This document shows positions 13,467-26,631 of a stretch of DNA of 64,000 nucleotides, piece after piece (position 1 is the first letter of the stretch; each line of letters starts with the position of its first letter). Source of the stretch: an uncultured Bacilli bacterium (GTDB taxonomy: Bacteria > Bacillota_I > Bacilli_A > RF39 > UBA660); contig CAKOWU010000007.1 in the NCBI GenBank assembly GCA_934129885.1, forward strand, positions 13,566 to 77,565, read 5' to 3'. The position numbers and the translations under genes are program-made. The notes below the pieces were generated by a model, which was not told the DNA's origin, did no database searches, and was given only the letters and a program-made list of their open reading frames with translations.

Positions 13467-15443
13467 ATGTTAGAAATGGGTGATCGAATGAAAAAATACA
13501 AAAAAACAAAAATACTAATTATCTTCATTCTTTTACCCATATTAGTAATATTAAGTATTTATCTATATGCTTACATATCCCCAAAACTTTCAATAGATGG
13601 TGCGAATGGCTACTACTTATACGATAATACCCAAAAACTATATAATGGTAGTAATGAAGACTGGGCAAACCTAAACCAAATATCAAATAACTTAATAAAT
13701 GCTACCATTTCTATCGAAGATAAAAACTTTTACAAACATAAAGGCTTTGACCCCTTAAGAATAATAAAAGCCTTATTTATAAATATAAAATCAAACGCCA
13801 CCATCCAAGGTGCCTCCACAATATCCCAGCAATATTCAAAAAACCTATTTCTAGACTTCGATAAAACCTGGTCTAGAAAACTAAAAGAAGCCTGGATAAC
13901 AGTACGTCTAGAAACCCACTATACCAAAGACGAAATATTAGAAGGATATCTAAACACCATCAACTACGGTGGTATATTTGGTATCGAAAACGCCTCAAAC
14001 TATTACTTTGGTAAAAACTCGCATGACCTTACCCTCGCAGAAGCATCCATGTTAGCGGGTATCCCCAAAAACCCTAGTACCTACTCTCCACTTATAAATG
14101 AAGAAAAAGCCAAAAAAAGGCAAAAAAGCATTTTAAACTCCATGGTTATAAATGGCTATATTACAGAAGAAGACGCAAATGCAGCCTATAAAGAAAAATT
14201 AACCTATAAAAGTAAAGATGACTCTGCCAATCTAAAAATGATGATGTACTATCAGGACGCCGTTATGGATGAACTAGAATCATTAGAAGGACTTCCCGCT
14301 TCCTTTCTAGATACCGGAGGTCTTAAAATATATACAAATTTAGATACTAACGCTCAAAAGTTATTAGAAAAATCTGGGAACAAAAATATCACATCAGATG
14401 GTATTCAAATGGCTGCTGTTGCTATCGAGCCTACAACCGGTAAAGTAATAGCATTAACAGGCGGAATGGATTACAATAAAAGTGAATACAATCGTGCCAC
14501 CAAAAGCACCAGACAAGTAGGATCTACCATAAAACCTTTTCTATACTATTCAGCCCTAGAAAATGGTTTCACTCCTTCCACAACATTTACCAGTGAAAAA
14601 ACAACCTTTACATTTGATAACAATAAAACCTATACTCCTAAAAACTACAACAATGAATATCCAAACAAACAAATAAGTATGGCCGCTGCCATCGCCTATT
14701 CAGATAACATATATGCCGTAAAAACCCATCTATTTCTAGGAGAAAATAATCTCACAAACACTTTAAAAAGAGTTGGTATAACTAAAGAAGTAAAAAACCT
14801 ACCCTCACTAGCACTCGGTGCCGAAGAAATAAATCTAATGGAAATGATGGAAGGCTATACTACACTAGCAAGTGGTGGCAACAAAATTAAGCCATATTTT
14901 ATCTCCAAAGTAACCGATATGAAAGGCAATATTTTATACGAAAATACTGGGAAGCCAGAAAGCGCCCTAAACAAAAGTACCACATATATACTAAATGAAT
15001 TACTTACAACAACATACTCTAAAGAGTTTATTGACTATAACACACCAACATGCTACTCAATATCTCCTAAAATGAGTCATAAATACGCAATAAAAAGTGG
15101 TACCACTAATACAGATAACCTAATATTTGGATACAACAAAAATATATTAGTAGGAATGTGGACTGGATATGATACCAACAAAGAAGTGACAAACAAGGAC
15201 AGCGCCAACATAAAAAATGCTTGGATAGACTTTACCGAAAGTTACCTAGAAGACAAAGACAAAGAAAACGAATGGTATACCGTGCCAGAAAACGTCGTCG
15301 GTGTTGCTATTGACCCAATAAGTGGAAACATCGCAAATGCCACATCAAAAACTAAAATACTATACTATATTAAAGGAACAGAACCTAAAAAAGATAATTA
15401 TAGTCTAGAAGATACCATTCCAACAATAAAAGAGCAGAATTAG
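13467..15443 (+). CDS. class A penicillin-binding protein (glycosyltransferase + transpeptidase)
   Basis: GT51 motifs (EDKNFYKHKGFD, GASTISQQ, RKLKEAW) and transpeptidase STIKPF and KSGTT. ATG 13488 (MKKYKK) is an alternative start. Confidence 0.93.
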   Translation: MLEMGDRMKKYKKTKILIIFILLPILVILSIYLYAYISPKLSIDGANGYYLYDNTQKLYNGSNEDWANLNQISNNLINATISIEDKNFYKHKGFDPLRIIKALFINIKSNATIQGASTISQQYSKNLFLDFDKTWSRKLKEAWITVRLETHYTKDEILEGYLNTINYGGIFGIENASNYYFGKNSHDLTLAEASMLAGIPKNPSTYSPLINEEKAKKRQKSILNSMVINGYITEEDANAAYKEKLTYKSKDDSANLKMMMYYQDAVMDELESLEGLPASFLDTGGLKIYTNLDTNAQKLLEKSGNKNITSDGIQMAAVAIEPTTGKVIALTGGMDYNKSEYNRATKSTRQVGSTIKPFLYYSALENGFTPSTTFTSEKTTFTFDNNKTYTPKNYNNEYPNKQISMAAAIAYSDNIYAVKTHLFLGENNLTNTLKRVGITKEVKNLPSLALGAEEINLMEMMEGYTTLASGGNKIKPYFISKVTDMKGNILYENTGKPESALNKSTTYILNELLTTTYSKEFIDYNTPTCYSISPKMSHKYAIKSGTTNTDNLIFGYNKNILVGMWTGYDTNKEVTNKDSANIKNAWIDFTESYLEDKDKENEWYTVPENVVGVAIDPISGNIANATSKTKILYYIKGTEPKKDNYSLEDTIPTIKEQN

Positions 15444-16726
15444 TTAATATCTATCTGCTTCTTTTTTACTTTAGGAAATCCTTCCTCTAAAATAATACCA
15501 TTTGCAAAAAGTTTCAAATAACTTTCTCTATTCTCTTCATTAAAACTAGTAATACCGTATTTAGCAAGACTATCCATAAATACATTTTCTTTATCCACAC
15601 CAATACCAGTTTCAATCAAACTATTAAACATAGGGTCAACAATAAAATTTTTTGCTCCTTTTTTATCGTGGTAACAAACAGTAATATAATTATGATTTAA
15701 AACATCTTTACCTTGTTCACTAGTATTATGTAAAGCACAATCAATCCCCTCACTTACTAAACGAGAAAATATATGCAGGCTTATATCGTCATTCCATAAA
15801 TCATGACTAATACATTCTTTTTCTATTCTATTCTTCCATCCACTAGTTTGTTTTAATATTTGTTCTGGAATAGGAATATCACCATAAAGTTTTGGTTTGA
15901 TTCCTAGCTCAAAAATTGAATCACATATTTTATAATAATAAAACTGTATAATCGCCTCACAGTTATCACTATCATCTCCTATAGCCTTATTCATAGCCTT
16001 TTTATAAGCCATATCTTCATTTGTCGATATATAAATAGAAGGAAGTCCAACATTTAAAAATAGTTTATTAATAAAACCTCTAATACTCCTACCATTACCA
16101 TCCACAAACGGGTGTATCTTAATAAGTTTACATTTAAATCTTATACATGCATCAATATAATCAAATAGCTTCTCTGGCATTTCTGGTATCTGTTTAGCCA
16201 AAACCATAATATCCTCTAAATCATAATTAGCGTCCCTTAAAGCCGGCCAAATACTTAAATAATCCAAAAAATTAACCCTAGAGCCATTAATATGACAATC
16301 AGAATTTCTTGTATGACCACCAAACGTATAATCAGCATCATAATTATTATTTTGCACAATTTCTGCATCTATTACTGAATAAAGCTTTTGATGCAAATCA
16401 AGTAATGTATAAATATCAAAGTTATCATCTATTTCTGGTGAATGAATATATTCATACATTGCGGCCATGCCCTCTTTTTCCTGGTGACTATGACTACCTT
16501 CTAAAATAGCTTCGCATTCAATATAATGATTAACAAAATTATCAGTTAAATCATCCAAATTACGCTCACTCGCATCTAAAGAATAATAATAACGAATAAG
16601 ATTCTTCGGAATATCTAAATTTTCTTTTTGATATAGTATTCCCTCATCTTTCTGCTTTTCATATCCTGAAAATAACATAATAATAATATTTTCAAGTTCC
16701 CTACCACTTATTTTACCAATATTCAT
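15440..16726 (-). CDS. Fic-domain protein with canonical active-site motif
   Basis: IHPFVDGNGRSIRGF equals HPFxDGNGRxxR, embedded in a 428-aa protein with long flanking regions. Confidence 0.85.
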   Translation of the reverse strand: MNIGKISGRELENIIIMLFSGYEKQKDEGILYQKENLDIPKNLIRYYYSLDASERNLDDLTDNFVNHYIECEAILEGSHSHQEKEGMAAMYEYIHSPEIDDNFDIYTLLDLHQKLYSVIDAEIVQNNNYDADYTFGGHTRNSDCHINGSRVNFLDYLSIWPALRDANYDLEDIMVLAKQIPEMPEKLFDYIDACIRFKCKLIKIHPFVDGNGRSIRGFINKLFLNVGLPSIYISTNEDMAYKKAMNKAIGDDSDNCEAIIQFYYYKICDSIFELGIKPKLYGDIPIPEQILKQTSGWKNRIEKECISHDLWNDDISLHIFSRLVSEGIDCALHNTSEQGKDVLNHNYITVCYHDKKGAKNFIVDPMFNSLIETGIGVDKENVFMDSLAKYGITSFNEENRESYLKLFANGIILEEGFPKVKKKQIDIN

Positions 16727-16789: not shown

Positions 16790-17030
16790 ATATATTATTA
16801 GTTTTATAGCTATCACGAAACCCTTTTATTTTAAATTTAGAAAAACCACTTTGTTTAAAAGATGACTATAAACACATTTTAAGTCGTTAGAATCATTTCT
16901 AAGAGAGAGGCTATCAACTTCTCTTAAAAATTTATTATAAATAAATCAGTTTTATTTATCAAAATTCTTTGCTCTATATTTGGATAAAGTCTAAAAATAT
17001 ATCCTCTAAGTATTTTTACATAATCACCTC
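16790..17030 (-). pseudogene. decayed IS200/IS605-family tnpB (OrfB) 5' fragment
   Basis: GAGGTGA then ATG-TAA, then frameshifted pieces (V)KILRGYIFRLYPNIEQRILINKT, REVDSLSLRNDSNDLKCVYSHLLNK and SGFSKFKIKGFRDSYKTNN. These match the conserved TnpB N-terminal pattern (YKFRLYPN.EQ, PKFKSKK..SY.T). Several stops, and truncated after about 110 codons. Confidence 0.55.
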
Positions 17031-17127
17031 GATTCACTATATATAGCATAACGTTTAAAATAAATGTTTGTAACGTTTGCTTTAAAATTTTTATGACTTT
17101 CCTATTACATAAAAAAGAAACTAAAAC

Positions 17128-17778
17128 CTAGTTCCTTTCTCTACCAAATATCTTTAATAATTCAATAAATAAATTAATAAAATCAAGATATAAATTAAAC
17201 GCTCCTAAAATAGCATAATTCTCATTACCATAACCAGAAGTATTCATTCTTCCAATTCGCTGCATATCATATGCAATATAACCAATAAATATTATTACAC
17301 CAATAATAGCCGTTACCATATTAAGTGTACTATTAAGCATAAAAATATTTACTACTTCAAGAACTATAATAACAAGTAATCCTATCAATAAATACGTTCC
17401 AAGCTTGTTTAAATCTACCTTAGTTTTTGAACCAATAAGTGCAAAAATACCAAATATAACAGCAGTCGCAAGTAATATATACATAACAGACGTCATTTCA
17501 AACATATAAAATATACTAGCAAACGTTAACCCTGTTAAGGCCGTATAACCGACATATAGTATTTTAGCAGTCGCTGGTTGCATCTTTTCTATTCTAATAG
17601 ACAACACAAGACACAAAACTATCTGAACTATAAATATTATCCAATAAGCTCCACCAGAAAATATCCTATTTAAAAGTTCCTCATTAGTAAGTGTATAATA
17701 ACCAGTAGCAAAAGTAATAAGTAATCCAATAAAAAGCCACATAAACACTTTTGAATAAAAATTATTCATTCTCTCCAT
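17128..17778 (-). CDS. BAX inhibitor-1/YccA family membrane protein
   Basis: Seven hydrophobic segments and a C-terminal LYLDFINLFIELLKIFG motif. Confidence 0.88.
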   Translation of the reverse strand: MERMNNFYSKVFMWLFIGLLITFATGYYTLTNEELLNRIFSGGAYWIIFIVQIVLCLVLSIRIEKMQPATAKILYVGYTALTGLTFASIFYMFEMTSVMYILLATAVIFGIFALIGSKTKVDLNKLGTYLLIGLLVIIVLEVVNIFMLNSTLNMVTAIIGVIIFIGYIAYDMQRIGRMNTSGYGNENYAILGAFNLYLDFINLFIELLKIFGRERN

Positions 17779-17868
17779 TCCTCTTTCTATTATTTATATT
17801 ATAGCACACATATCATTTAATCATCTAACATATATCATTAATTTACATCACTTATGTATAATTATATT

Positions 17869-18801
17869 TTATTTTTTTAACTTTTTTGAATAAATATGAA
17901 GAAAATCTAACTTAGTTTCATCATCCTCATATATTAAATCAGATAAATCAATAGCTTTATCCAAATTTAAAGGAGCATGAGTGACATTACCTTTTTGTTT
18001 AGATATCATTCTATCTATATACTCCTCATCAAAATTAGGACTCATAGAATAATCTAATAATGATTGATAGAATTTTACAAGTTGTTGCCAATGTAAAGGC
18101 TTTAATGTTCCATTCGCACATCTAAATTCTATGGTATTTTTACCAGTTGGTTTAATTACCTCATCTCTCAAATTAGCTATATTCAAAGCCGAACTTCTAG
18201 CTAAATAAAGATAATCTAATACCGTTTTATACCTTTTACCTCTCGCACATTCTAGCAATTCCAATACAAAATCAAGGCCCATACTCACTGGAACTGAATA
18301 CCTTTCAATAGATTCTCGTGGTCCTTTACCAAAATAACCAAAATTAAATATTACATCTTCATAAGCAATCCAAAGTTTATAAAGGTTTAATAAATAATAT
18401 GGATCACTTGCAAACTCTGTTCCATCTATATGAACATGAGCCCCGCACTTATTAGTAATAAAATAATTCATCATCTTTATTTCCTTACATACATTTTTTA
18501 ATTCTTTCCACGTTTCTTTTGTATCTGATAAAATAGGTGAAACAAACTCATAGCCAATTATTTCTTCACTATAATCATTTATAGAACGGTCATTAACAAA
18601 CTGCCACGAAGTCTTATATAACTTCTTATTAGGAAATATCCTATCAGTACCATCAACTACATTTTCATCAAATTCCAAAAAATTTTCAGTATGTTCCATA
18701 CTTCCAACTTCTATTTCAACACCAAAAGATCTTTTAACACACATTATTTTTTTATATTTAGGTTTATGCTTTTGGATTTCATCTAATCTATACTTTTTCA
18801 T
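17869..18801 (-). CDS. amidoligase-like (Amidoligase_2 / glutamine-synthetase-fold) enzyme
   Basis: FGVEIEVGS, GYEFVSPIL, CGAHVHID and NTIEFRCANGTL occur in the order typical of the putative amidoligase family. Starts 55 nt downstream of the RT stop. Confidence 0.7.
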   Translation of the reverse strand: MKKYRLDEIQKHKPKYKKIMCVKRSFGVEIEVGSMEHTENFLEFDENVVDGTDRIFPNKKLYKTSWQFVNDRSINDYSEEIIGYEFVSPILSDTKETWKELKNVCKEIKMMNYFITNKCGAHVHIDGTEFASDPYYLLNLYKLWIAYEDVIFNFGYFGKGPRESIERYSVPVSMGLDFVLELLECARGKRYKTVLDYLYLARSSALNIANLRDEVIKPTGKNTIEFRCANGTLKPLHWQQLVKFYQSLLDYSMSPNFDEEYIDRMISKQKGNVTHAPLNLDKAIDLSDLIYEDDETKLDFLHIYSKKLKK

Positions 18802-18856
18802 AAGAATTCCCCTTTTTTATAACGTATATTATAGTCATTAATAAATTTATGTCAAA

Positions 18857-19960
18857 TCATAACTTAAGTCTATATAAAAACTCTCTAGCATTTGCCATCA
18901 TAAAATATCCCTTATAGCTAGCCTTTACAAGTTCGTATTTTTTACCACCTTTCCTCTTTAACCTGCGTAACTTTCTTTTTATCCTTTTTTTATTTTGATT
19001 ACGAAGTAAAACAATTAACCTTTTCTCCTTTAATACAAATTTATACCCAAGAAAATCAAAACCTTTATTCAAATCATAAATTTGAGTTTTAATATTTAAT
19101 TCTAACTTAAGTTTATGTACCTCATCCCCTATTATTTTCAAAACTTCTTTTAAATACTCTTTATCATGGTGAACAATTAAAAAATCATCCATATAACGTA
19201 CATAATTTTTTATCCTTAACTTTTCCTTAATGAAATGATCAAAATCACTTAAATAATAAATTGCCAATATCTGACTAGTTTCATTCCCAATAGGTAACCC
19301 CTTACCATTTTTATATCTAGGTAAATAACTCAGTTCCTTTTTTTTCTTATCTAAATCAGTAAGACCCATTTGCGTAATACGAGCAATTTCTCTCTTAACC
19401 GCACTATCAATAAATTTATTAACCTCAACCTTCTCTGTACTTTCTATAATATTTTTTACCACGTTGTATATATCAGGATCAGTAATATCTTTTCTTAACT
19501 TATTAAGCAATATTTCATGATCAATATTATAAAAATATTTACTTATATCACACTTTAAAACATATAACTTATCAAAATTTTCTTTTTCTCTATTTATAAA
19601 CTTTTTTAAATACTCTATTCCTTTTTTAGTACCCATACCTTTCCTTGTCGCAACATTAGTATTTATAAATTTTTTTTCTAAACTAGGCAGTAAAGCATAA
19701 TGACTAATCAAATGATTAACAATTTTATCACCCAAAGTCTCACTCATAATAATACGATATTTTGGTTCCTTTATTAAAAATACATTATAATGATGGTGAT
19801 TATACTCTTTTCTTCTTAAAATATCTAATATATATACAATATTACTGGTAAAAGCTAGTTCAAATCGAACTAGCTTCTCTTTGTGACATGTATTCGTGCG
19901 AATATTCTCATACACATTTTTTATCTTATCAATAGATAGTAAATCTTCGTACTTAACCAT
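18857..19960 (-). CDS. reverse transcriptase, DGR type
   Basis: RT motifs LKCDISKYFYNIDH and YVRYMDDFLIV (YMDD), plus the DGR-specific motif-4 signature LPIGNETSQ ([I/L]GxxxSQ). Its ATG overlaps the stop of the upstream ORF (TAATG). Confidence 0.9.
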   Translation of the reverse strand: MVKYEDLLSIDKIKNVYENIRTNTCHKEKLVRFELAFTSNIVYILDILRRKEYNHHHYNVFLIKEPKYRIIMSETLGDKIVNHLISHYALLPSLEKKFINTNVATRKGMGTKKGIEYLKKFINREKENFDKLYVLKCDISKYFYNIDHEILLNKLRKDITDPDIYNVVKNIIESTEKVEVNKFIDSAVKREIARITQMGLTDLDKKKKELSYLPRYKNGKGLPIGNETSQILAIYYLSDFDHFIKEKLRIKNYVRYMDDFLIVHHDKEYLKEVLKIIGDEVHKLKLELNIKTQIYDLNKGFDFLGYKFVLKEKRLIVLLRNQNKKRIKRKLRRLKRKGGKKYELVKASYKGYFMMANAREFLYRLKL

Positions 19961-20595
19961 TACTTAACACCACTTAAATAATAACTTTTATTTGACTTAT
20001 CATATACAAAAGTTTTACTTGTACCCTTATCTAAAACATCATTTAAAGTGTCCTCATTATAGTCTCCTATCTCTTCAGATGCTAAATTATAAACCTTATC
20101 GTCCCGAGCATATCCAAACTTAACATCTACAAGTAACTGGTCAATGCTGTAACTATACCCAAATAATTTTGAAACATATTTTGTATCACAATTATCTGTT
20201 TTCTCCCTTGTAATCTTATCACCAGATAAAGTATATTTATAACCACCATAAACAAACTCATTAAAAGTTACATCTTTATTACCAGCTACTGCCTTAATAG
20301 CCTTATTATAACTTTCTACATTAATACTATCACTTAATAACTTATCATTTTTCATCATTGAAAACGCCATATAAATAATCGCATCATTTTCATTATTGGC
20401 ATTTCCTAAAGTAGTGCACTCATCAGCCATAATATTTTCATAAAGAGTATCAACGACATCATGCTTTACAGTTTCCTTCTGTGCAAGTTCATCACTATCA
20501 TCCTTCTTTACTAATACAAAGGTCAAAAATATAATAATAATTACTATAACAAATACTATAGCGATAATAACTTTCTTATTTTTTAACTTCTCCAT
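19960..20595 (-). CDS. hypothetical membrane-anchored protein between avd and RT
   Basis: 211 aa with an N-terminal TM helix (VIIAIVFVIVIIIIFLTFVLV). Overlaps the avd end by 20 nt and the RT start by 1 nt. No family recognised. Confidence 0.65.
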   Translation of the reverse strand: MEKLKNKKVIIAIVFVIVIIIIFLTFVLVKKDDSDELAQKETVKHDVVDTLYENIMADECTTLGNANNENDAIIYMAFSMMKNDKLLSDSINVESYNKAIKAVAGNKDVTFNEFVYGGYKYTLSGDKITREKTDNCDTKYVSKLFGYSYSIDQLLVDVKFGYARDDKVYNLASEEIGDYNEDTLNDVLDKGTSKTFVYDKSNKSYYLSGVK

Positions 20596-20938
20596 TTATA
20601 TCATTCCTTTTTTTTAATCCATAAATCATTTTTCTAATCTCTGTAAAAAACCTTCCTAAAACTTCAAACTGATGTTTACTAATAATTTTTTTATCATATG
20701 AAACTCTAACATAAAAATCTAACATCGATGTCTTAATGAGCATATCTTTCAAATTCTTTTCTCTAATTCTATCAGTATCATTAATACTGTATGCAAAAAC
20801 AAGTTCAACTAACTGATAACAAGCCTGCTCTATATTATTACTTAAAATCATTTCTCTTTTAGGGTAATTTATTAATAACTTGTTAAAATAATTAACTGTT
20901 TTATAAATATTATTTAGTATTTTAAAATTGTAATTCAT
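20576..20938 (-). CDS. avd: Avd-like four-helix-bundle protein (accessory variability determinant / 23S rRNA IVS protein family)
   Basis: 120 aa from ATG 20938, with AAGGTGA 5 nt upstream. Pattern YPKREMILSNNIEQACYQLVELVFAY is typical of this helical family. Sits beside a DGR-type RT. Confidence 0.72.
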   Translation of the reverse strand: MNYNFKILNNIYKTVNYFNKLLINYPKREMILSNNIEQACYQLVELVFAYSINDTDRIREKNLKDMLIKTSMLDFYVRVSYDKKIISKHQFEVLGRFFTEIRKMIYGLKKRNDINGEVKK

Positions 20939-21015
20939 AATTTCACCTTTTAATAATTGTGTGGCGAAAGGGAAAGCAATAAAATCAAAGATGACCCTAA
21001 CCCACCGATATAGCA

Positions 21016-21206
21016 ATAGTTATATAAACACACTCGCAGTTATATAACGTCTATATCATCTTTTTAGGCATATGCCAAGGAATTAACCTTGTTTCCAATC
21101 TGAATAAGATTATTGCCAAAATGGCAACTACTTCCTCTCGTTATTAGCCTTAACCAAATAACATCACGGTTCATTAGTAAATAATTACTAATCGTAGTAG
21201 GAAATT
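21016..21206 (-). promoter_or_regulatory. structured non-coding leader between the cassette array and avd
   Basis: Palindromes GGCATATGCC (21067-21076), CAAGGAATTAACCTTG (21076-21091) and TTGCCAAAATGGCAA (21113-21127). Direct repeat AGTTATATAA x2 (about 21019-21050). Function unknown. Confidence 0.3.
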
Positions 21207-21207
21207 G

Positions 21208-21312
21208 GGCGGACGCCGAGACTATTCCACGTATTAGTTTCGTTCAAGTTACCCGTACTACCCAGATATAACTCGTTAGCGTTAAACCTGTTGTTATAGT
21301 TAGACGGCGACA
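21208..21312 (-). repeat. silent cassette C1 (Asn/AAC-rich, template-like)
   Basis: Box GGCGGACGCCG to box GACGGCGACA spans 105 nt. Minus-strand frame: VSPS-NYNNRFNANELYLGSTGNLNETNTWNSL-GVRP, with 9 Asn (7 AAC). Confidence 0.85.
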
Positions 21313-21364
21313 CCTATAAACCACCATACATTAAGGTTAATCCCTATTACCCTTTTGGAAAATG

Positions 21365-21469
21365 GGCGGACGCCGAGCCAATTGTTAGTATCCCAGTTAT
21401 CGAACTCACCAGAATCACGCACCATAATCTCGTTAGCGTTGAACCAGTTATTGAAGTGGAACGGCGACA
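21365..21469 (-). repeat. silent cassette C2 (Asn/AAC-rich, template-like)
   Basis: 105 nt box to box. VSPF-HFNNWFNANEIMVRDSGEFDNWDTNNWL-GVRP, with 7 Asn (5 AAC). Confidence 0.85.
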
Positions 21470-21518
21470 CACAAAACCTTACTCTAAAGTTAATCCCTAT
21501 ATCTTTTTTTTGGAAAGT

Positions 21519-21623
21519 GGCGGACGCCGATCGTATTCCAAGTGTTCCAATTATCCATAGAACCTATAGAATTAACGATATACTCGTTAGCATTGAACCA
21601 ATTGTTGAAAAGAGACGGCGACA
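21519..21623 (-). repeat. silent cassette C3 (Asn-rich, template-like)
   Basis: 105 nt box to box. VSPS-LFNNWFNANEYIVNSIGSMDNWNTWNTI-GVR, with 8 Asn. Confidence 0.85.
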
Positions 21624-21671
21624 CATACAACCTATCTTAAGGTTAATCCCTAATATTCTTTTTCGGAAAGT

Positions 21672-21776
21672 GGCGGACGCCGAGCCAGCTAGCGGGGTCC
21701 CACTCAATAATAGAACCATTCTCATGTACTAAAAACACATTAGAAGCAAGCCAACTATCAAAAAGGGACGGCGACA
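21672..21776 (-). repeat. silent cassette C4 (Asn-poor, diversified-looking)
   Basis: 105 nt box to box. MSPS-LFDSWLASNVFLVHENGSIIEWDPASWL-GVR. Confidence 0.85.
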
Positions 21777-21823
21777 TCCATAGCCTCATCTTAAGATTAA
21801 TCCCTATATCTTTTTTGGAAAGT

Positions 21824-21928
21824 GGCGGACGCCGAGCTCATTCCAAACATTCCAATCATTCATAGAACCCACAGCATGCACTGCAATCTCAGGAGCAGCG
21901 AGCCAATCTTTGAAACGAGACGGCGACA
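21824..21928 (-). repeat. silent cassette C5 (Asn-poor, diversified-looking)
   Basis: 105 nt box to box. MSPS-RFKDWLAAPEIAVHAVGSMNDWNVWNEL-GVR. Confidence 0.85.
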
Positions 21929-21976
21929 TCTATAACCTATCTTAAGATTAATTCCTAATATCCTTCTTGGAAATTG

Positions 21977-22081
21977 GGCGGACGCCGTACCATGAATGCA
22001 TACTAAAGAAATCAATAGCACCAGATACACTTATGAAAAGCCCATAAGAGGTCTGCCAATGATCAAAGCGGGACGGCGACA
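21977..22081 (-). repeat. silent cassette C6, identical to the expressed variable module
   Basis: 105 nt box to box. VSPS-RFDHWQTSYGLFISVSGAIDFFSMHSWY-GVRP. Positions 21976-22081 equal 22542-22647 (106/106 nt). Confidence 0.9.
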
Positions 22082-22129
22082 CACATACCTTAATTTAAGA
22101 TTAACACCTATATTCTTTTTTGGAAATTG

Positions 22130-22234
22130 GGCGGACGCCGTAAGTATTCCACACATTAGTTCCATAAAGGTAACCTAAACTACCCAGATAAAACATGCTA
22201 GCATAAAAGCCATAATGGAAAACGGACGGCGACA
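22130..22234 (-). repeat. silent cassette C7 (Asn-poor, diversified-looking)
   Basis: 105 nt box to box. LSPS-VFHYGFYASMFYLGSLGYLYGTNVWNTY-GVRP. Confidence 0.85.
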
Positions 22235-22400
22235 AATCGCACATAATTTTAGGTTAATCCTTACTCGGAAAATTTTTTTATTGCTATGAAGCAATATCCT
22301 ATATCCAAGTTTTAAATTATGGGGGCATCCTTTTTATTTATCTTGCGGTCCCCCATGCCCATTATTTATTTATCACTCTCCACACATCATATTCATCGCG

Positions 22401-22428
22401 GGACAAAAATGATGAGTCATTTTTGTCC
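22401..22428 (-). promoter_or_regulatory. perfect 12-bp stem / 4-nt loop hairpin downstream of the target gene
   Basis: GGACAAAAATGA-TGAG-TCATTTTTGTCC. No U-tract follows on either strand, so it is not a typical intrinsic terminator. Confidence 0.5.
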
Positions 22429-22455
22429 ATCAATGTTCTGATTATATTTCATGAA

Positions 22456-22479
22456 ATGTGGTTTCTTACGAAACCACAT
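22456..22479 (-). promoter_or_regulatory. 10-bp stem hairpin whose tetraloop contains the target-gene stop codon
   Basis: ATGTGGTTTC-TTAC-GAAACCACAT. On the coding strand the loop is GTAA (GNRA-type), and its TAA is the stop of the 975-aa ORF. Confidence 0.5.
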
Positions 22480-25393
22480 ATGGATCTTCTTTCGTACCTG
22501 TTCCAGTAAATGTCAGATTATCAGTATTCAGATTGAGAACCGGGCGGACGCCGTACCATGAATGCATACTAAAGAAATCAATAGCACCAGATACACTTAT
22601 GAAAAGCCCATAAGAGGTCTGCCAATGATCAAAGCGGGACGGCGACATGGTCCAATAGTTCGTACCACTGTATAGATAATAGAGGGAGTTCATGGCTCCT
22701 GCCATTCCCCCTGCCATATTTACTTCATCGGCTGTAATTAAACCAATAGCCTTTGTCAAAGAGCCGTTACTGATGCTATACTCATCATCTGAATTACATA
22801 ATAACGTTGGTCCCTTAGGTGAACCACCCCAATTCCAAAATCTTTCATAACCATAAATAGTAGGTGTTATTCCGTATCCTGTATTCTTATAAGTACCAGA
22901 CTGAAGTGTTGATATATTTTTATTATTACAATATGTCGTATTCTTTGAGAACTTATCTGTATAACTAGATAAATTACTATCATACCAACTATCCAAATAA
23001 GTTTTTATAGTACTATTAGTTACTTTCGCAAATGCCCCTTCTTTCGAAGTAGAACCATAGCCTTTGCCACTTACTGTCATAGATGAAGAACTCACATATT
23101 TTTTTGTATAAAACAAACGCTGACATGAATTGTTTTTATTAGTATCGAAGCAAGTATAATACCCTACCTTATCAGTGGCTAATGTTCCACTAATTAAATC
23201 ACCAGAAACCTTATAACTTTTAGTACTCTTATCGAACGTATAACTAGTTCCAAAATAATACTTTGATGTAGAAGATAAACCAGTATAATTAAATGTTAAA
23301 TCTCCACTATCAGTCTGTACAAAATTACTTTCGTCTCCATACATATACCCAACATAAGCATTATCATTAATATATGAATTAAAAGCCCTAGTACCGACCT
23401 GTCTATCACTAGTCGATTCTCCATTAGGATGTGCACTAGAGCCATCATATATCATTCTAACAGAGCCATCACCATTTACCCTTATTATTCTCCAATATTT
23501 ATTCGCAAACTTAACATAGTTACCACCAACAGAACCACGATAATAATAAGTATCCCCATCATTATCAGTACCTGCATACATGCCAACATCTTTAGTATCA
23601 TAACTTGCCATATTCTGTGTATAGTTATACTTAGTAAATGTATAAGTTTTAGTACCAGTAGTAGAATTAGTACTCGCACTTACACTAGATATCTTATACA
23701 TAGTAGACGCTATAGTATTCCAATTTTGTCCAAGCGTATAATATGTAGTACTAGTATAATCAAGATTACCAGGTTCAACAGTACTACCACCAGTTATTTG
23801 ATACATACCAGTATTAGTATTAAACGTATAACCAGTACCTATATATACATCAGATAAAGTCGTTGACCAAGTTGATAAACTAGTCGCAGCCTTTTCACTA
23901 TAACTTAATTTAGGCGAAGTACTTGTAAAACTTGGAGTACCTTTAGCCTTAATAGTACTTTTCGCAGACGTAATATCAGTATCCTTTGCCTCACTCGCAA
24001 TAACACAATCCCCTAAATCAGTAATACCATTCTTTTCACAGTAACTTTTATGCTTTATAGCAGTCGTTCCCGCTTTAGTAGAAGAAGTATTTCCCGCCTT
24101 ATCTTGAACATAAACATTAACTATATACTCACCCTCTGATAAAGACGTAAACGTATAATTAGCGTTTTCGCTAGAAGTATATGTCTGTCCACCATCTTTA
24201 CTATAATAGTAAGTATTAAGGCCACTATCCTTATCAGAAGCATTTACCTCTACCGTCATAGTATCATCATCAGGAGTAACCGTTACACTATTTACCGTTG
24301 GATCAACGTTATCTACTAAATAACTATCCGAACACTGTTCAGTACTGTTACCAACTCTGTCAGTAGCCTTAAAACATAACTTTTGCTCACTACTACTTCC
24401 ATCAAAAACATAATTAAAAGTATTATCATCCGATAAAGTAGCCTCTTTAGTAGGAGTACATGTTTCATCTGTAGTTACACAATATAAAAACGTTTTTATT
24501 TTATCATTATCTGTTACTGTATTTGTTAGGGTAACCGCCTTATTCCAATTATTATTACCTTGTATTATTTCTTTTTCTTCTATTTTTATGGTTGGTTTAG
24601 TAGTATCTATAGTTTTAGTAGTAGATGTTGATACTACAACATTACCATCTTTATCTTCAGCCTTAACATATATAGTATAGTTGGTATTAGGAGTTAGATC
24701 AGTTAAAATATAGTTATCATTCATGCTGGTATACCATTTATCATTATCGTATGAATAATAATAATTTACAGCATCTGTAGCACTTACTCTTACATTTATT
24801 CTATTTTCTTCTGGGGTTAAGGAAATACCTGCGATAGATAGGTTATCAATAGAGGGAGCATCTGCACCTGAAAATTCTGTTTTACTACCTTCTTGGACAA
24901 AATTTAAATCGGCGGTTATATCAAAGGTTTTATTACCTACACTTGTAGTTACATTTTCATCATATGTGATAGTGACATAAAAGGTTTTACTATCACCTGA
25001 TTTTAAAACATCACCAGAACTGATATCCTCTATTTTAGATTTTAGGATGCTGGAGTCATTCATATTTATTTTAATATAGTCTAAGGCAGCATTTAGTGTC
25101 CCTTCATTAGATACAGTAATGGCGTATTTAGCACTATCACCTGGAGACTTAAAATTTACATTCATAGATGCGTTAAGTTCACTAAAAGTGGCATCACTTT
25201 CTTCGGTAGCCATGCCAGTTAATTTTTCTAATTTTATATTTGTTATTACTACTTTCCATTTTGTAGAAATACTGCTGGTACCTTTAATATCAAGTTGACT
25301 GCTAAAAGCAGAATAGCCTACTGCCATCAAAGTCATAATTCCAAGCATAAAAACAATTAGATAATTTTTCCTTATCATGTCTCTTCTTCTCAT
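22466..25393 (-). CDS. large secreted/surface protein, putative DGR target (Ig/FN3-like repeats plus C-terminal 'YW..SP...GVRP' binding module)
   Basis: N-terminal signal/anchor (LIVFMLGIMTLMAVGYSAF). Repeated beta-sandwich-like units (NYTIYVKAEDKDGN, EYIVNVYVQDKAGN, KATDRVGN). GAGG RBS before ATG 25393. The C-terminal region is homologous to the 59452 paralogue. Confidence 0.85.
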   Translation of the reverse strand: MRRRDMIRKNYLIVFMLGIMTLMAVGYSAFSSQLDIKGTSSISTKWKVVITNIKLEKLTGMATEESDATFSELNASMNVNFKSPGDSAKYAITVSNEGTLNAALDYIKINMNDSSILKSKIEDISSGDVLKSGDSKTFYVTITYDENVTTSVGNKTFDITADLNFVQEGSKTEFSGADAPSIDNLSIAGISLTPEENRINVRVSATDAVNYYYSYDNDKWYTSMNDNYILTDLTPNTNYTIYVKAEDKDGNVVVSTSTTKTIDTTKPTIKIEEKEIIQGNNNWNKAVTLTNTVTDNDKIKTFLYCVTTDETCTPTKEATLSDDNTFNYVFDGSSSEQKLCFKATDRVGNSTEQCSDSYLVDNVDPTVNSVTVTPDDDTMTVEVNASDKDSGLNTYYYSKDGGQTYTSSENANYTFTSLSEGEYIVNVYVQDKAGNTSSTKAGTTAIKHKSYCEKNGITDLGDCVIASEAKDTDITSAKSTIKAKGTPSFTSTSPKLSYSEKAATSLSTWSTTLSDVYIGTGYTFNTNTGMYQITGGSTVEPGNLDYTSTTYYTLGQNWNTIASTMYKISSVSASTNSTTGTKTYTFTKYNYTQNMASYDTKDVGMYAGTDNDGDTYYYRGSVGGNYVKFANKYWRIIRVNGDGSVRMIYDGSSAHPNGESTSDRQVGTRAFNSYINDNAYVGYMYGDESNFVQTDSGDLTFNYTGLSSTSKYYFGTSYTFDKSTKSYKVSGDLISGTLATDKVGYYTCFDTNKNNSCQRLFYTKKYVSSSSMTVSGKGYGSTSKEGAFAKVTNSTIKTYLDSWYDSNLSSYTDKFSKNTTYCNNKNISTLQSGTYKNTGYGITPTIYGYERFWNWGGSPKGPTLLCNSDDEYSISNGSLTKAIGLITADEVNMAGGMAGAMNSLYYLYSGTNYWTMSPSRFDHWQTSYGLFISVSGAIDFFSMHSWYGVRPVLNLNTDNLTFTGTGTKEDPYVVS
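22543..22647 (-). other. expressed variable module (VR-like) of the surface protein
   Basis: Same two GC-rich boxes as the cassettes, 105 nt apart. Encodes MSPS...YGVRP (codons 916-950, ending 25 codons before the stop). Confidence 0.85.
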
Positions 25394-25475
25394 ATACTAT
25401 ACCTCTTTCACGCATATTTTTAATATGCAAATGTTCTCTACCATCTTCCTACAATATACTTATACTTATGCTAAA

Positions 25476-25505
25476 ATTATAATATGTAACGCCAAATCTT
25501 GTCAA
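25476..25505 (-). promoter_or_regulatory. consensus sigma-A promoter of the target gene
   Basis: Minus strand reads TTGACA (25505-25500), an 18-nt spacer, then TATAAT (25481-25476), about 80 nt upstream of the ATG. Confidence 0.65.
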
Positions 25506-25599
25506 GATACTTATGGATAGAACACACAAAATAAAAAAAGTTTAAAAAAACATTAGATTCTATTTCTAATGTTTTTGCTTTACACTATCATATCCTTTA

Positions 25600-26025
25600 C
25601 TAGAACAAGTCATAATATATCTCTTCATTATACTTATCTACTCGTTTTAGCATTTCATCCATATTATCTTTAATATATCTACACATTTCTTTATAATTTT
25701 CTACACTTATGTAATTACTTTCACTCATATATTGATAAAACTTCTTTACACTAGAAGTTGTTTTTTTTAATGAGTTTCTTGATGATCATAGACACTTTTC
25801 TATAAACCATCCACCTAAAAACGAAGCAACTTCAAAAACTCCATCTTCCGCTTTTGTAACGTCATAATAAGTTAAATAATCATTAATAAACAATCTAGCA
25901 TTACCTACATGCTTTCTTACAGTCTTATTAGATAAATCTTTTTCCTCTAACCATTTTTGAAAGCCCTTTAAATATTTCTCATTTCTTTTTATGTTTTTTT
26001 CCGCTTCTACTTCATAATCCCTCTT
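25600..26025 (-). pseudogene. decayed small ORF resembling an integrase N-terminal SAM-like (core-binding) domain
   Basis: 142-codon frame with no start codon (ATG-AAG-TAG in a neighbouring frame) and an in-frame TGA at 25786-25788. Translation: ...NEKYLKGFQKWLEEKDLSNKTVRKHVGNARLFINDYL...*SSRNSLKKTTSSVKKFYQYM... Family call is tentative. Confidence 0.35.
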
Positions 26026-26037
26026 TTAATCACGGCC

Positions 26038-26631
26038 TTACTTTTCCTTAAAAAATTCTCTATTAACACTATAATACTGTATCCCTGAAATAACTGACAA
26101 AGTAGTTGCAAGTATTAGCAGAAAGTCCGATATCCTTAAATTCAAAAGTTCAAATGGCATATTATAAAATAACGTCAAAACAAGACCAACCATCATTGAA
26201 GCAGTTTTCACTTTACCTAGCATCCCAGCTGGTATGACTTTTCCATTTTTGCTGGCAACCATTCTTATAGAATCTACAAAAGTATCACGCATAATGATTA
26301 TCACTGGTATTATTGGGTGAATAAAACCTTGCGCTGATAATATTACTAGTACAGCATTCACAAGTATTTTATCAGCTACAGCATCCATAAACTTTCCAAA
26401 ATCAGTTACTAAATTATACTTTCTTGCAATATATCCATCTATAAAATCAGTTAAAGACGCAATGATAAATAAAACACCCGCAACTAAGTACCTAACATCT
26501 ATCACTATTGTTTCATTCACAAATATTTGTGCTATATCAATTCCCATCGCCGAAAACGGAAATAAGAGTATTACTACTATTATTAATGTTAATATTATTC
26601 TAAATATTGTTAATTTATTTGGTGTATTCAT
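26038..26631 (-). CDS. pgsA: CDP-diacylglycerol--glycerol-3-phosphate 3-phosphatidyltransferase
   Basis: NKLTIFRI...DFIDGYIARKYNLVTDFGKFMDAVADK CDP-alcohol phosphatidyltransferase motif. Confidence 0.92.
   Translation of the reverse strand: MNTPNKLTIFRIILTLIIVVILLFPFSAMGIDIAQIFVNETIVIDVRYLVAGVLFIIASLTDFIDGYIARKYNLVTDFGKFMDAVADKILVNAVLVILSAQGFIHPIIPVIIIMRDTFVDSIRMVASKNGKVIPAGMLGKVKTASMMVGLVLTLFYNMPFELLNLRISDFLLILATTLSVISGIQYYSVNREFFKEK

Follow-up and report, generated by a model that had tools for sequence, protein, structure and literature searches.

A probable diversity-generating retroelement of uncultured gut Bacilli with seven tandem template cassettes for one variable region

We have analyzed a 64,000-nucleotide stretch of DNA from an uncultured Bacilli bacterium (contig CAKOWU010000007.1; the window) together with homologous loci in strains of the same species and in related gut Bacilli. 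With a probability of roughly four in five, the window holds an active chromosomal diversity-generating retroelement (DGR) in which a single template repeat (TR) has been expanded to seven tandem alternative templates for one variable region (VR). Judging from the sequences of sister strains, the cassettes are stable while the VR turns over, its alleles consisting of one cassette plus substitutions at adenines, with some mosaics among them. Different cassettes apparently rewrite the same tip of a surface protein, so that allele switching is combined with hypermutation.

[quoted passage not shown] Between the target and avd are about 1.5 kb of non-coding DNA, corresponding to repeat families D1-D5 and made up of seven tandem units of ~153 nt (TRF period 152-154). 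These are followed by avd, the DGR accessory variability determinant (20576..20938; 120 aa), the membrane-anchored ORF211 (19960..20595; 211 aa) and the RT (18857..19960; 367 aa). Overlaps of 20 nt between avd and ORF211 and of 1 nt (TAATG) between ORF211 and the RT bear out the stop/start coupling of the three genes that had been proposed in the original prediction, and each feature of its parts list was found in its place on the minus strand. Its count of seven cassettes in the array also stands, but it had overlooked an eighth box-to-box unit, which is the VR within the 3' end of the target gene. The prediction had further counted an amidoligase-like ORF as part of the element. This ORF (17869..18801, minus strand) does match the Amidoligase_2 profile (3.6e-14); as a DGR component, however, it can be ruled out, given its own 12/12 consensus promoter at 18855..18828 and the lack of a counterpart at homologous loci of other species. 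The amidoligase merely neighbours the element.

The RT matches the RVT_1 profile at 1.6e-18 and PHROG 1423 at 1.3e-81. Its top relative in the PDB is 8ub7_A, a 328-aa RT (E value 1.5e-22), while group II RTs score 4.8e-11; we take entries 8ub7-8ube to be bRT, the DGR enzyme of Bordetella phage BPP-1. The two motifs by which DGR RTs are recognized, [I/L]GxxxSQ in motif 4 and YxDD, are present as IGNETSQ and YMDD. Assignment of the protein to the DGR type is supported by these motifs and by its top PDB relative. An identical RT protein occurs on at least 23 contigs. The earlier identification of Avd, made from the letters alone, was corroborated by the Pfam bAvd profile (4.8e-12; 46.8 bits against a cut-off of 40) and by PHROG 3206, 'Avd protein of DGR' (5.9e-17). 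The match to NCBIfam DivGenRetAVD (2.9e-11) lies below the cut-off, and a search of the Avd sequence against the PDB gave no match. ORF211 has an N-terminal TM helix and matches no Pfam, NCBIfam or PHROG family; a word search returned close homologues only. Its AF2 model (pLDDT 77.6) gave no significant fold in the PDB, the best match being NTF2-like with E ~0.09. In 17 relatives with an RT 56-64% identical to the query, a homologue of ORF211 (33-49% identity) is found immediately 5' of the RT. Lying between avd and the RT and translationally coupled to them, ORF211 belongs to the conserved accessory genes of this DGR subfamily.

The target protein has an N-terminal signal anchor, an Ig-like/PKD/Big_13 region and a DUF6273-like C-terminal variable domain. 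The Big_13/PKD matches are weak and the DUF6273 match is sub-threshold (E value 1.2e-3); homologues of the target bear PF19789. The C-terminal 444 aa, searched by sequence against the PDB, gave no match, and Foldseek with an AF2 model of the C-terminal 375 aa (pLDDT 82) found nothing significant in the PDB and just weak matches to DUF6273 phage proteins in BFVD. A C-type-lectin fold was not confirmed, because the model had no significant PDB match. The VR (22543..22646, minus strand, box to box) encodes SPSRFDHWQTSYGLFISVSGAIDFFSMHSWYGVR, is the putative recipient of cassette information and ends 77 nt before the target stop codon. In the window it is identical to cassette C2 at 104/104 positions. 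As expected of a DGR, the VR is situated at the 3' end of a coding target, and the template is non-coding and nearly invariant between strains. The VR and every cassette share the GC box GGCGTCCGCC, directly past which their sequences diverge. A candidate DGR target-recognition hairpin, ATGTGGTTTC-GTAA-GAAACCACAT, spans the target stop codon (22456..22479, minus strand); it begins 63 nt past the 3' box and has a 10-bp AT-rich stem and a GTAA loop. It matches only in part the published pattern of a 7-10 bp GC-rich stem with a GRNA loop 4-34 bp from the VR (PMC3240598). The hairpin is present in 10 of 15 other related loci examined, with a shorter and partly different stem (GTTGTTTC..GAAACAAC) in which pairing is kept. 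A second hairpin, GGACAAAAATGA-CTCA-TCATTTTTGTCC, is found 3' of the target gene (22401..22428, minus strand) and is conserved in relatives; most of the examined related loci have the same AAAATGACTCWTCATTTT hairpin ahead of their first template unit.

Every cassette is exactly 104 nt long, from GTCGCCGT to GGCGTCCGCC. The window contains 8 copies of the 3' box where 0.12 would be expected, and all 8 are within the DGR locus. The flanking identity between VR and cassettes amounts to just ~12-14 nt per side. The cassettes, all on the minus strand and each with an upstream 11-nt motif that we call a selector, are of two kinds. C1 to C4 are adenine-poor and VR-like: C1 (22130..22233; 18 A; selector AGGATTAACCT, 22261..22251), C2 (21977..22080; 16 A; selector GGTGTTAATCT, 22108..22098), C3 (21824..21927; 17 A; selector GGAATTAATCT, 21955..21945) and C4 (21672..21775; 15 A; selector GGGATTAATCT, 21804..21794). 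C5 to C7 are TR-like and rich in AAY codons: C5 (21519..21622; 26 A, 8 AAY codons; selector GGGATTAACCT, 21650..21640), C6 (21365..21468; 23 A, 7 AAY codons; selector GGGATTAACTT, 21497..21487) and the terminal C7 (21208..21311; 30 A, 9 AAY codons; selector GGGATTAACCT, 21344..21334). No adenine-only pair exists within the window, where all pairs of cassettes differ at 27-53 positions, at most 40-55% of them adenines. As the function could not be decided from the window by itself, population data were needed.

The same-species set comprises 11 loci on metagenome contigs (L053-L063, the window included) with 100% identical RTs. Among their seven VR alleles, four are derived from C6, one from C5 and one from C7, and one is equal to C2. 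When each strain's own cassette is taken as reference, 53 of 56 substitutions fall at template A (p = 9e-30). The adenine-specific relation of template to VR, which the window lacks (0 differences), is found in these sister strains with an identical RT. C5 is the template of the VR in L056 and L062 (11 A-substitutions), and C6 that of the four alleles in L054, L055, L059 and L060 (8, 10, 10 and 2 A-substitutions, with one non-A change); the L061 VR differs from that strain's own C7 by 12 A-only substitutions. The C5-derived VR of L056 and L062 also contains the 3' end of C1 (ACTTAC). None of the seven alleles of this species comes wholly from C1, C3 or C4. A VR carries 2-13 substitutions relative to its template cassette, whereas cassettes vary by 0-5 nt between all strains but L061, where the difference reaches 9 nt. 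The suggestion in the original prediction that the retroelement chooses among several templates agrees with these adenine-mutagenised copies of C5, C6 and C7, and with the internal cassettes that serve as templates in other species.

The arrays of the 11 loci differ only in which of eight shared cassettes they contain; C3, for example, is missing from L055 and L061. C2 is present, with 0-1 difference, in L056, L059, L060 and L062, whose VRs are derived from C5 or C6. Slot 2 of the array, which holds another cassette in L054, was considered as a rewritable position and rejected, as L059 and L060 hold both cassettes adjacently. A VR equal to C2 was found on 14 contigs, from strains that form one clade with 0-4 SNPs per 2.8 kb. 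Independent recurrence of this state is ruled out by the phylogeny, which puts the carriers in one clade and shows that it was a single event.

Other species of gut Bacilli have between 1 and 9 cassettes per locus. Relatives with a single TR show 12-20 A-only differences. In relatives with 2-9 cassettes it is an internal cassette that the VR matches, with 12/1 adenine/other changes in L002, 14/0 in L006, 9/0 in L008, 12/0 in L010, 8/1 in L017 and 14/0 in L067. Overall, adenine-specific template/VR pairs are found in at least 12 related loci. Strains of the same species differ in the cassette used (L002 vs L067; L010 vs L083), and mosaic VRs made from two cassettes occur in L020 and L056. The original prediction had named homologous arrays in genomes without an RT as evidence against it; all homologous arrays with sufficient flank adjoin an RT, and neither an RT outside the DGR clade nor a conventional adenine-only TR/VR pair elsewhere, which it had named as well, was encountered. 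According to its record title, L017 comes from a whole chromosome of 1.52 Mb assembled with hifiasm, and two relatives have chromosomes of 1.3 and 1.5 Mb. In JGI metagenomes a species-specific DNA pattern gave 0 matches and a general box pattern matched 20 loci, of which roughly half are chance matches in GC-rich contigs.

Behind the terminal cassette is a conserved, structured spacer (Sp) RNA element (21007..21207, minus strand), predicted with RNAalifold from a 20-sequence alignment. In this structure 97.5% of cells are paired, compared to 34-52% in slid controls, and compensatory change is seen at 20 pairs, compared to 1-6. C7 is the sole cassette with such a long spacer RNA behind it, a position that corresponds to the single TR of canonical relatives; the internal cassettes are without one. 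The Sp RNA contains the dock AGGTTAATTCC (21089..21079, minus strand), complementary to the cassette selectors, and GAGAGGAAGT (21139..21130, minus strand), which pairs with AATTTCCT.CT immediately behind the cassette. The predicted selector-dock helix has 11 bp and displays covariation, including UA:9/CG:9 at one pair. Selectors are 11/11 complementary to the dock of their own locus in 29 of 31 internal cassettes and in 1.4% of random controls. This suggests, from complementarity and covariation, that the template is chosen by competing selector-dock pairing. The conservation of the selectors could be due to inheritance from unit duplication instead of selection. An Rfam scan of positions 17000-26500 (E <= 1) gave no match.

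These observations could be accommodated as follows. The array and the spacer RNA behind C7 would be transcribed together, and RT-Avd would assemble on the spacer RNA. Pairing of a cassette's own selector with the single dock would present that cassette for reverse transcription; alternatively, one long cDNA might read through several cassettes. The adenine-mutagenised cDNA would then replace the VR between both boxes, partial replacement yielding mosaic VRs. In this way the A-rich C5-C7 could yield hypermutated variants on three different scaffolds, and the A-poor C1-C4 would be nearly fixed alternative alleles, installable with few or no changes, as in VR = C2. At the sister-strain rate of 0.36 substitutions per A, the chance that all 16 adenines of C2 remain unchanged is ~8e-4; the published in-vivo rate for BPP-1 (PMC12875486) gives a chance of 0.003 for an unchanged C2 copy. 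Because this chance is low, the C2 transfer may have used another route (RecA gene conversion) or may have been selected.

That other route leads to the first alternative, which is unlikely: silent-cassette gene conversion in the style of pilE/pilS or vlsE, without the RT and with the DGR as a separate matter, or in a weaker form limited to the A-poor cassettes and VR = C2. The layout, with promoterless partial-gene cassettes behind an expression site, is consistent with it, as are 0/16 changed adenines in VR = C2, transfer that is exact from box to box and the existence of mosaic VRs. However, some 12-14 nt of flanking identity per side is short for RecA, the arrays are always beside an RT, and in the other transfers 53 of the 56 changes are adenine-specific, the signature of a DGR RT.

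Likewise unlikely is a two-tier, possibly two-way repertoire in which the A-rich cassettes would be variant generators and the A-poor ones stored products of earlier mutagenic retrohoming, with choice by selector and dock. The A-poor cassettes would then preserve, as a heritable memory, binding sites that had worked in the past. Because they contain few adenines, the A-poor cassettes could on this reading be reinstalled almost unchanged. The stronger proposal that successful VR alleles are written back into the array, so that C1-C4 would be past variants and a heritable memory, is improbable. C1-C4 and C2', an extra cassette of other strains, are A-poor, the VR of the window is exactly C2, and differences from the nearest A-rich cassette favour the adenines of that partner: C1 shows directional loss of A relative to C7 (15 vs 3, p = 0.0075). 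Because of this bias, C1-C4 may be products of past mutagenic reverse transcription, and all four carry a footprint left by adenine mutagenesis in the past. This footprint is explained equally well, however, if mutagenic homing was now and then directed into a duplicated template. The presence/absence variation of shared cassettes suggests unequal recombination, and no strain-specific new cassette was found among the eleven same-species loci. C2 is also present in the clade B strains (~1.2% diverged), and because these have C6-derived VRs, C2 predates the VR = C2 state. We know of no mechanism for transfer from VR to array. The idea of the original prediction that the element archives variants finds no direct support, as strains differ by whole shared cassettes and not by newly written ones, although the footprint in four cassettes remains.

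A conventional one-template DGR, in which only the avd-proximal C7 would act as template and C1-C6 would be inert relics (duplicated TRs or fragments of the target 3' end), is very improbable. It would fit the conserved ~200-nt spacer RNA, present only behind C7 as it is behind the single TR of canonical relatives, and the A-poverty of C1-C4. Against it, 6 of the 7 VR alleles of this species come from C5, C6 or C2, with A-only changes, L002, L006, L008, L017 and L067 have internal cassettes as their templates, and cassette sequences and selectors are intact across strains. Independent assemblers and L017 oppose an explanation of the C5- and C6-type VRs as assembly errors. That assemblers collapsing a hypervariable population created the repeats or the VR = C2 identity can be practically dismissed: population VRs are heterogeneous and the window probably comes from a metagenome assembly, but the same array was obtained by several assemblers from several cohorts (k141_, NODE_ and scaffold_ contigs), VR = C2 is on 14 contigs, the path from VR flank to C2 core needs real reads because the shared boxes (8-13 nt) are far below assembly k-mers, and arrays are not short-read artefacts because the title of L017, a relative with an array, names a hifiasm whole-chromosome assembly.

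The element as we interpret it, a DGR supplied by several templates, resembles canonical DGRs (BPP-1 mtd/avd/TR/brt and those of Treponema, Legionella and Bacteroides) in its RT with the [I/L]GxxxSQ motif and its Avd, in having the VR in the 3' end of the gene for a ligand-binding surface protein, and in a G+C-rich 3' boundary common to template and VR. Adenine-specific substitutions, AAY-rich templates and a structured spacer RNA behind the template are likewise shared. Canonical DGRs have one TR, whereas here seven tandem templates (1-9 in relatives) serve one VR, and four of the seven are adenine-poor. The gene order also differs, being target, templates, avd, extra membrane ORF and RT, so that avd and ORF211 part the array from the RT. 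Unlike in canonical DGRs, each template has its own motif complementary to the spacer RNA, and one VR allele is an unmutated template copy. The seven-for-one architecture is the point of novelty and no ground for exclusion from the DGRs. The original prediction knew of no described DGR with such an array, and our search of the openly accessible literature likewise turned up no account of one VR served by templates in a tandem array. DGRs with several TRs near one RT have been reported (Yan et al. 2019, PMC6642488; zeta crAss-like phages, PMC12386605), in which each TR matches its own VR or target. In these TR1 pairs with VR1 and TR2 with VR2, whereas the cassettes described here all have the boundaries of one VR, and that VR is rewritten from different cassettes in different strains.

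The locus shares with Neisseria pilE/pilS, Borrelia vlsE/vls and the chicken Ig pseudo-V genes an expression site with adjacent promoterless partial cassettes and conserved flanks, as well as segmental or mosaic transfers (here in L020 and L056); the chicken Ig system also combines a coarse choice of cassette with point hypermutation. Unlike these systems, the transfers here bear the adenine-specific mark of an RT, the array is tied to RT and Avd, and flanking homology is very short. Faithful transfer of the silent-cassette type is limited here to the single C2 event, whereas transfers from C5-C7 carry adenine-specific substitutions. Splicing of Dscam1 exon 6 similarly has one dock, a complementary selector before each cassette and one pairing at a time. 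Dscam1, however, is a case of eukaryotic splicing, whereas the pairing proposed here, from complementarity and covariation, would choose a template for reverse transcription. Strain-specific new units, as in CRISPR-like array growth, are absent among the eleven same-species loci.

In the current understanding of DGRs, diversification comes from one invariant template and is confined to the adenine-encoded positions of a fixed scaffold. A template array would add a combinatorial layer, with seven or eight scaffolds and mosaics of them, followed by adenine mutagenesis, and would bring sequences within reach that changes at the adenine positions cannot give. The antibody genes of birds and rabbits are layered in a parallel way, by gene conversion plus hypermutation. 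Standard DGR finders seek a single TR/VR pair with A-only mismatches, and would miscall both the window, with its VR = C2, and the 'orphan' VRs left by array deletions. The array also raises the question of how the RT-Avd-RNA complex picks one template; the selector and dock are testable in E. coli reconstitution systems. If VR sequences were written back to the array, protein variants would be stored in a memory based on a retroelement. The hosts are uncultured gut Bacilli with small genomes, and the attachment of such bacteria may depend centrally on a hypervariable adhesin.

Every feature listed in the original prediction is present in the window, all on the minus strand. A promoter matching the consensus at 12 of 12 positions (25505..25476) precedes the target ORF (25393..22466), which encodes a protein of 975 aa with an N-terminal hydrophobic anchor and weak Ig-like, PKD and Big_13 matches; its variable domain bears a weak likeness to DUF6273. 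Beyond ~1.5 kb of non-coding DNA lie avd (20938..20576; bAvd, 4.8e-12; PHROG 'Avd protein of DGR', 5.9e-17), a membrane-anchored ORF of 211 aa (ORF211, 20595..19960) and a reverse transcriptase (RT) of 367 aa with the motifs IGNETSQ and YMDD (19960..18857). The overlaps are 20 nt between avd and ORF211 and 1 nt between ORF211 and RT. In 17 relatives, with RTs 56-64% identical to the query, the gene immediately upstream of the RT encodes an ORF211 homologue (33-49% identity); ORF211 therefore belongs to this DGR subfamily as a conserved accessory gene. No family was found for ORF211, and its AF2 model (pLDDT 77.6) gave no significant fold match. The next ORF, an Amidoligase_2 gene (18801..17869), had been taken as part of the element; it was rejected as a DGR component since it has its own perfect promoter (TTGACA-16-TATAAT, 18855..18828, minus) and no homologue at the DGR loci of other species; it is a species-specific neighbour. 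The gene surroundings (pgsA, RodZ-like HTH, DivIVA, PBP, FeoAB) are those of an ordinary chromosome, not a prophage. Flanking the region on the downstream side of the DGR are two genes with Fic/DOC domains: the first encodes 428 aa and adjoins the Bax1-I gene (window 15440-16726, minus), and the second encodes 180 aa and is more distant, ~9 kb past the RT (20151-20693 in the coordinates of the same-species locus L053).

Within the non-coding stretch are seven repeat units with a period of ~153 nt (cassettes C1 to C7, C7 being the terminal, avd-proximal one), each containing a core of exactly 104 nt bounded by GTCGCCGT and GGCGTCCGCC. The expected number of 3' boxes in the 64-kb window is 0.12; the observed number is 8, all of them within the DGR locus. 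The eighth box pair, overlooked in the original prediction, delimits the variable region (VR) at 22646..22543, inside the target gene; the VR is in the classical position, since it ends 77 nt ahead of the target stop codon. All cassettes are open, with no stop codons, in the reading frame of the VR. They are of two kinds: C5, C6 and C7, adjoining avd, with 23-30 adenines and 7-9 AAY (Asn) codons each, and C1-C4, with 15-18 adenines and 0-3 such codons, which resemble used VRs. Richness in adenines and AAY codons is a hallmark of DGR templates. The VR of the window is identical to C2 (104/104), the match being lost within a few bases beyond the boxes. No adenine-only pair was found among all cassette pairs of the window, so that the role of the array cannot be read from the window alone. 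An assembly artefact is excluded, because the window's array was recovered by several assemblers and that of a related locus, L017, comes from a record whose title gives hifiasm as the assembler and a whole chromosome of 1.52 Mb.

The identical RT protein is found on at least 23 other contigs, and the 90% cluster of the target has 14 members with differing VRs. Eleven same-species loci (L053-L063, the window included) were read, and VR substitutions were counted against each strain's own array. The cassettes are near-invariant between strains (0-5 differences, up to 9 in L061); the VR differs in almost every lineage. It matches C6 in L054 (8 adenine substitutions), L055 (10, plus one G→T creating a stop codon), L059 (10) and L060 (2), C5 in L056 and L062 (11), C7 in L061 (12), and C2, with 0 substitutions, in the window, L053 and L063. 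Template adenines, which are 23.7% of positions, take 53 of the 56 substitutions (p = 9e-30). This argues strongly for an active DGR that has used at least four of the array's cassettes as template. At its 3' end the L056 VR is made identical to C1 by its two non-adenine changes, which suggests a C5/C1 mosaic. The arrays of different strains vary only in which whole cassettes they contain (8 in L059 and L060, 7 in the window, 7 in L054 with one different member, 6 in L061 and 5 in L055), a pattern that unequal recombination between repeats would give. The G→T change in the L055 VR (L055:7714-7817, ERZ27287356) turns GAG into TAG and cuts the target to 936 aa; the same truncation is seen in the target variants P0123 (on 7 contigs) and P0130, so the target has apparently been knocked out by a non-adenine error in a circulating strain. 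Two other variants, P0129 and P0132, have 960 aa, 15 residues shorter than the 975 aa of the window.

A genome scan with an RT alignment yielded 50 loci. Their hosts are uncultured gut Bacilli, recorded as 'Tenericutes', Firmicutes bacterium CAG:822 or Candidatus Coprosoma, which we take to be RF39-like. All arrays with enough flank adjoin avd (where detectable), an ORF211 homologue and an RT. Single-template relatives (L009, L011, L016, L022, L040) display the textbook DGR pattern of 12-20 adenine-only differences. Other relatives have 2-9 cassettes, and in several the VR matches an internal one. Counting differences at adenines and at other positions, the VR matches an internal cassette in L006 (14/0), L008 (9/0) and L017 (8/1), the fourth of eight extracted cassettes in L002 (12/1; this locus has nine cassette-type 3' boxes), the second of seven in L067 (14/0) and the first template-spacer (TR-Sp) unit in L010 (12/0). 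The cassette used differs between conspecific strains (L002 versus L067; L010 versus L083), and the L020 VR is a clean chimera of two cassettes: the terminal one supplied the 5' half and the internal one the 3' half, with the junction in a shared stretch. The earlier suggestion of a DGR choosing among several templates is thus supported both by the same-species population and by VR/cassette matches across species. The L066 VR (L066:8570-8950) derives from a cassette absent from its own array and kept as the terminal one by the conspecific L073 (L073:200-470); it is an 'orphan' resulting from deletion within the array, of a type that standard DGR finders would judge wrongly.

Whole template-plus-long-spacer units are duplicated in L002 (L002:6928-8990), L010 (L010:7888-8640) and L017 (L017:8025-9000), giving 2-3 copies of a structured RNA of ~200 nt, in place of duplication of the short cassette unit alone; arrays thus grow in two ways. 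The CAG:822-like group has a short avd-proximal cassette (78 nt; L002:8673-8750, L017:8681-8758, L067:6135-6212, L072:1193-1270) that contains only 4-7 adenines, is conserved between species and is followed by a full spacer RNA; by its composition it would have little capacity to diversify. L007 has a single box pair (L007:8602-8983), preceded by VR-type sequence within the target gene and followed by spacer RNA of the template type; the VR seems to have been fused with the terminal template by a deletion that took the target 3' end and the whole array.

The ~200-nt stretch after the terminal cassette (21207..21007 in the window) is strongly conserved across species. RNAalifold predicts eleven helices in this spacer RNA from a 20-sequence alignment, with 97.5% paired cells versus 34-52% when partners were slid, and compensatory change at 20 pairs versus 1-6 in the slid controls. 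Three of the predicted helices take in template sequence. Helix 1, a long-range helix of 11 bp, joins a selector motif ~30 nt upstream of the cassette (GGGATTAAYCT) to a dock in the spacer RNA (AGGTTAATTCC, 21089..21079) and exhibits clear covariation (UA:9/CG:9 at one pair). Helix 2 pairs the two boxes and is invariant, thus uninformative. Helix 3 joins AATTTCCT.CT, directly after the cassette, to AG.AGGAAGT in the spacer RNA, and its first 5-6 nt are retained at each internal cassette. Each internal cassette also has its own selector, and over all loci 29 of 31 are complementary at 11/11 positions to the dock of their own locus, compared with 1.4% of random controls. From this complementarity we propose a scheme of one dock and many selectors, in which the selectors would compete for the single dock and pairing would decide which cassette reaches RT-Avd, much as in the docking/selector pairing of Dscam exon 6 choice. 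Selector conservation could, alternatively, be simply inherited through unit duplication, or a long read-through cDNA might recombine at the boxes in place of selector/dock choice. A hairpin with the conserved core AAAATGACTCWTCATTTT separates the target gene from the first template unit (window 22401-22428, minus); it is present at equivalent positions in most of the related species examined (L002-L040) and directly abuts the selector motif in single-template loci. Possible roles for this hairpin are termination, processing and a part in target recognition.

None of the 16 adenines of C2 is changed in the VR of the window; the chance of this is 8e-4 at the sister-strain rate of 0.36 substitutions per adenine and 0.003 at the in-vivo BPP-1 rate of 30.65% (PMC12875486). 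The rate is heterogeneous, given that only 2 of 23 adenines are changed in L060. The strains with a C2-identical VR form one tight clade with the C5-type L056 and L062, and clade B strains, ~1.2% diverged and with C6-derived VRs, have C2 as well; the simplest reading is thus a single C2→VR transfer in the ancestor of the tight clade. Either recombinational conversion or selection for an infrequent cDNA without mutations could account for such a transfer. Differences of the A-poor cassettes from the nearest A-rich cassette fall on adenines of the A-rich partner (directional counts 15:3 for C7 versus C1, p = 0.0075). This directional footprint marks the A-poor cassettes as old products of mutagenic reverse transcription, now in template positions. 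They may have arisen by homing into duplicated templates; write-back from the VR would be another route, but no strain-specific new cassette was found among the eleven same-species loci. The same absence counts against the idea, also raised in the original prediction, that the array archives variants; the old footprint of adenine mutagenesis in the A-poor cassettes speaks for it, and we consider an archive improbable.

The element has the defining features of a DGR, namely an RT, Avd, a VR at the 3' end of the target and transfer with adenine-specific changes. It differs from canonical DGRs in its tandem multi-template array serving one VR, its A-poor templates, its extra conserved membrane ORF and the selector motif of each template. 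Surveys describe DGRs with several TRs, each TR with its own VRs (PMC6642488; PMC12386605). We found no description of a tandem template array for one VR in a search of the openly accessible full-text literature. In function the system resembles silent-cassette gene conversion combined with hypermutation, although here it would be performed by a reverse transcriptase. A multi-template DGR of this kind should be of high interest to both retroelement and microbiome biologists.
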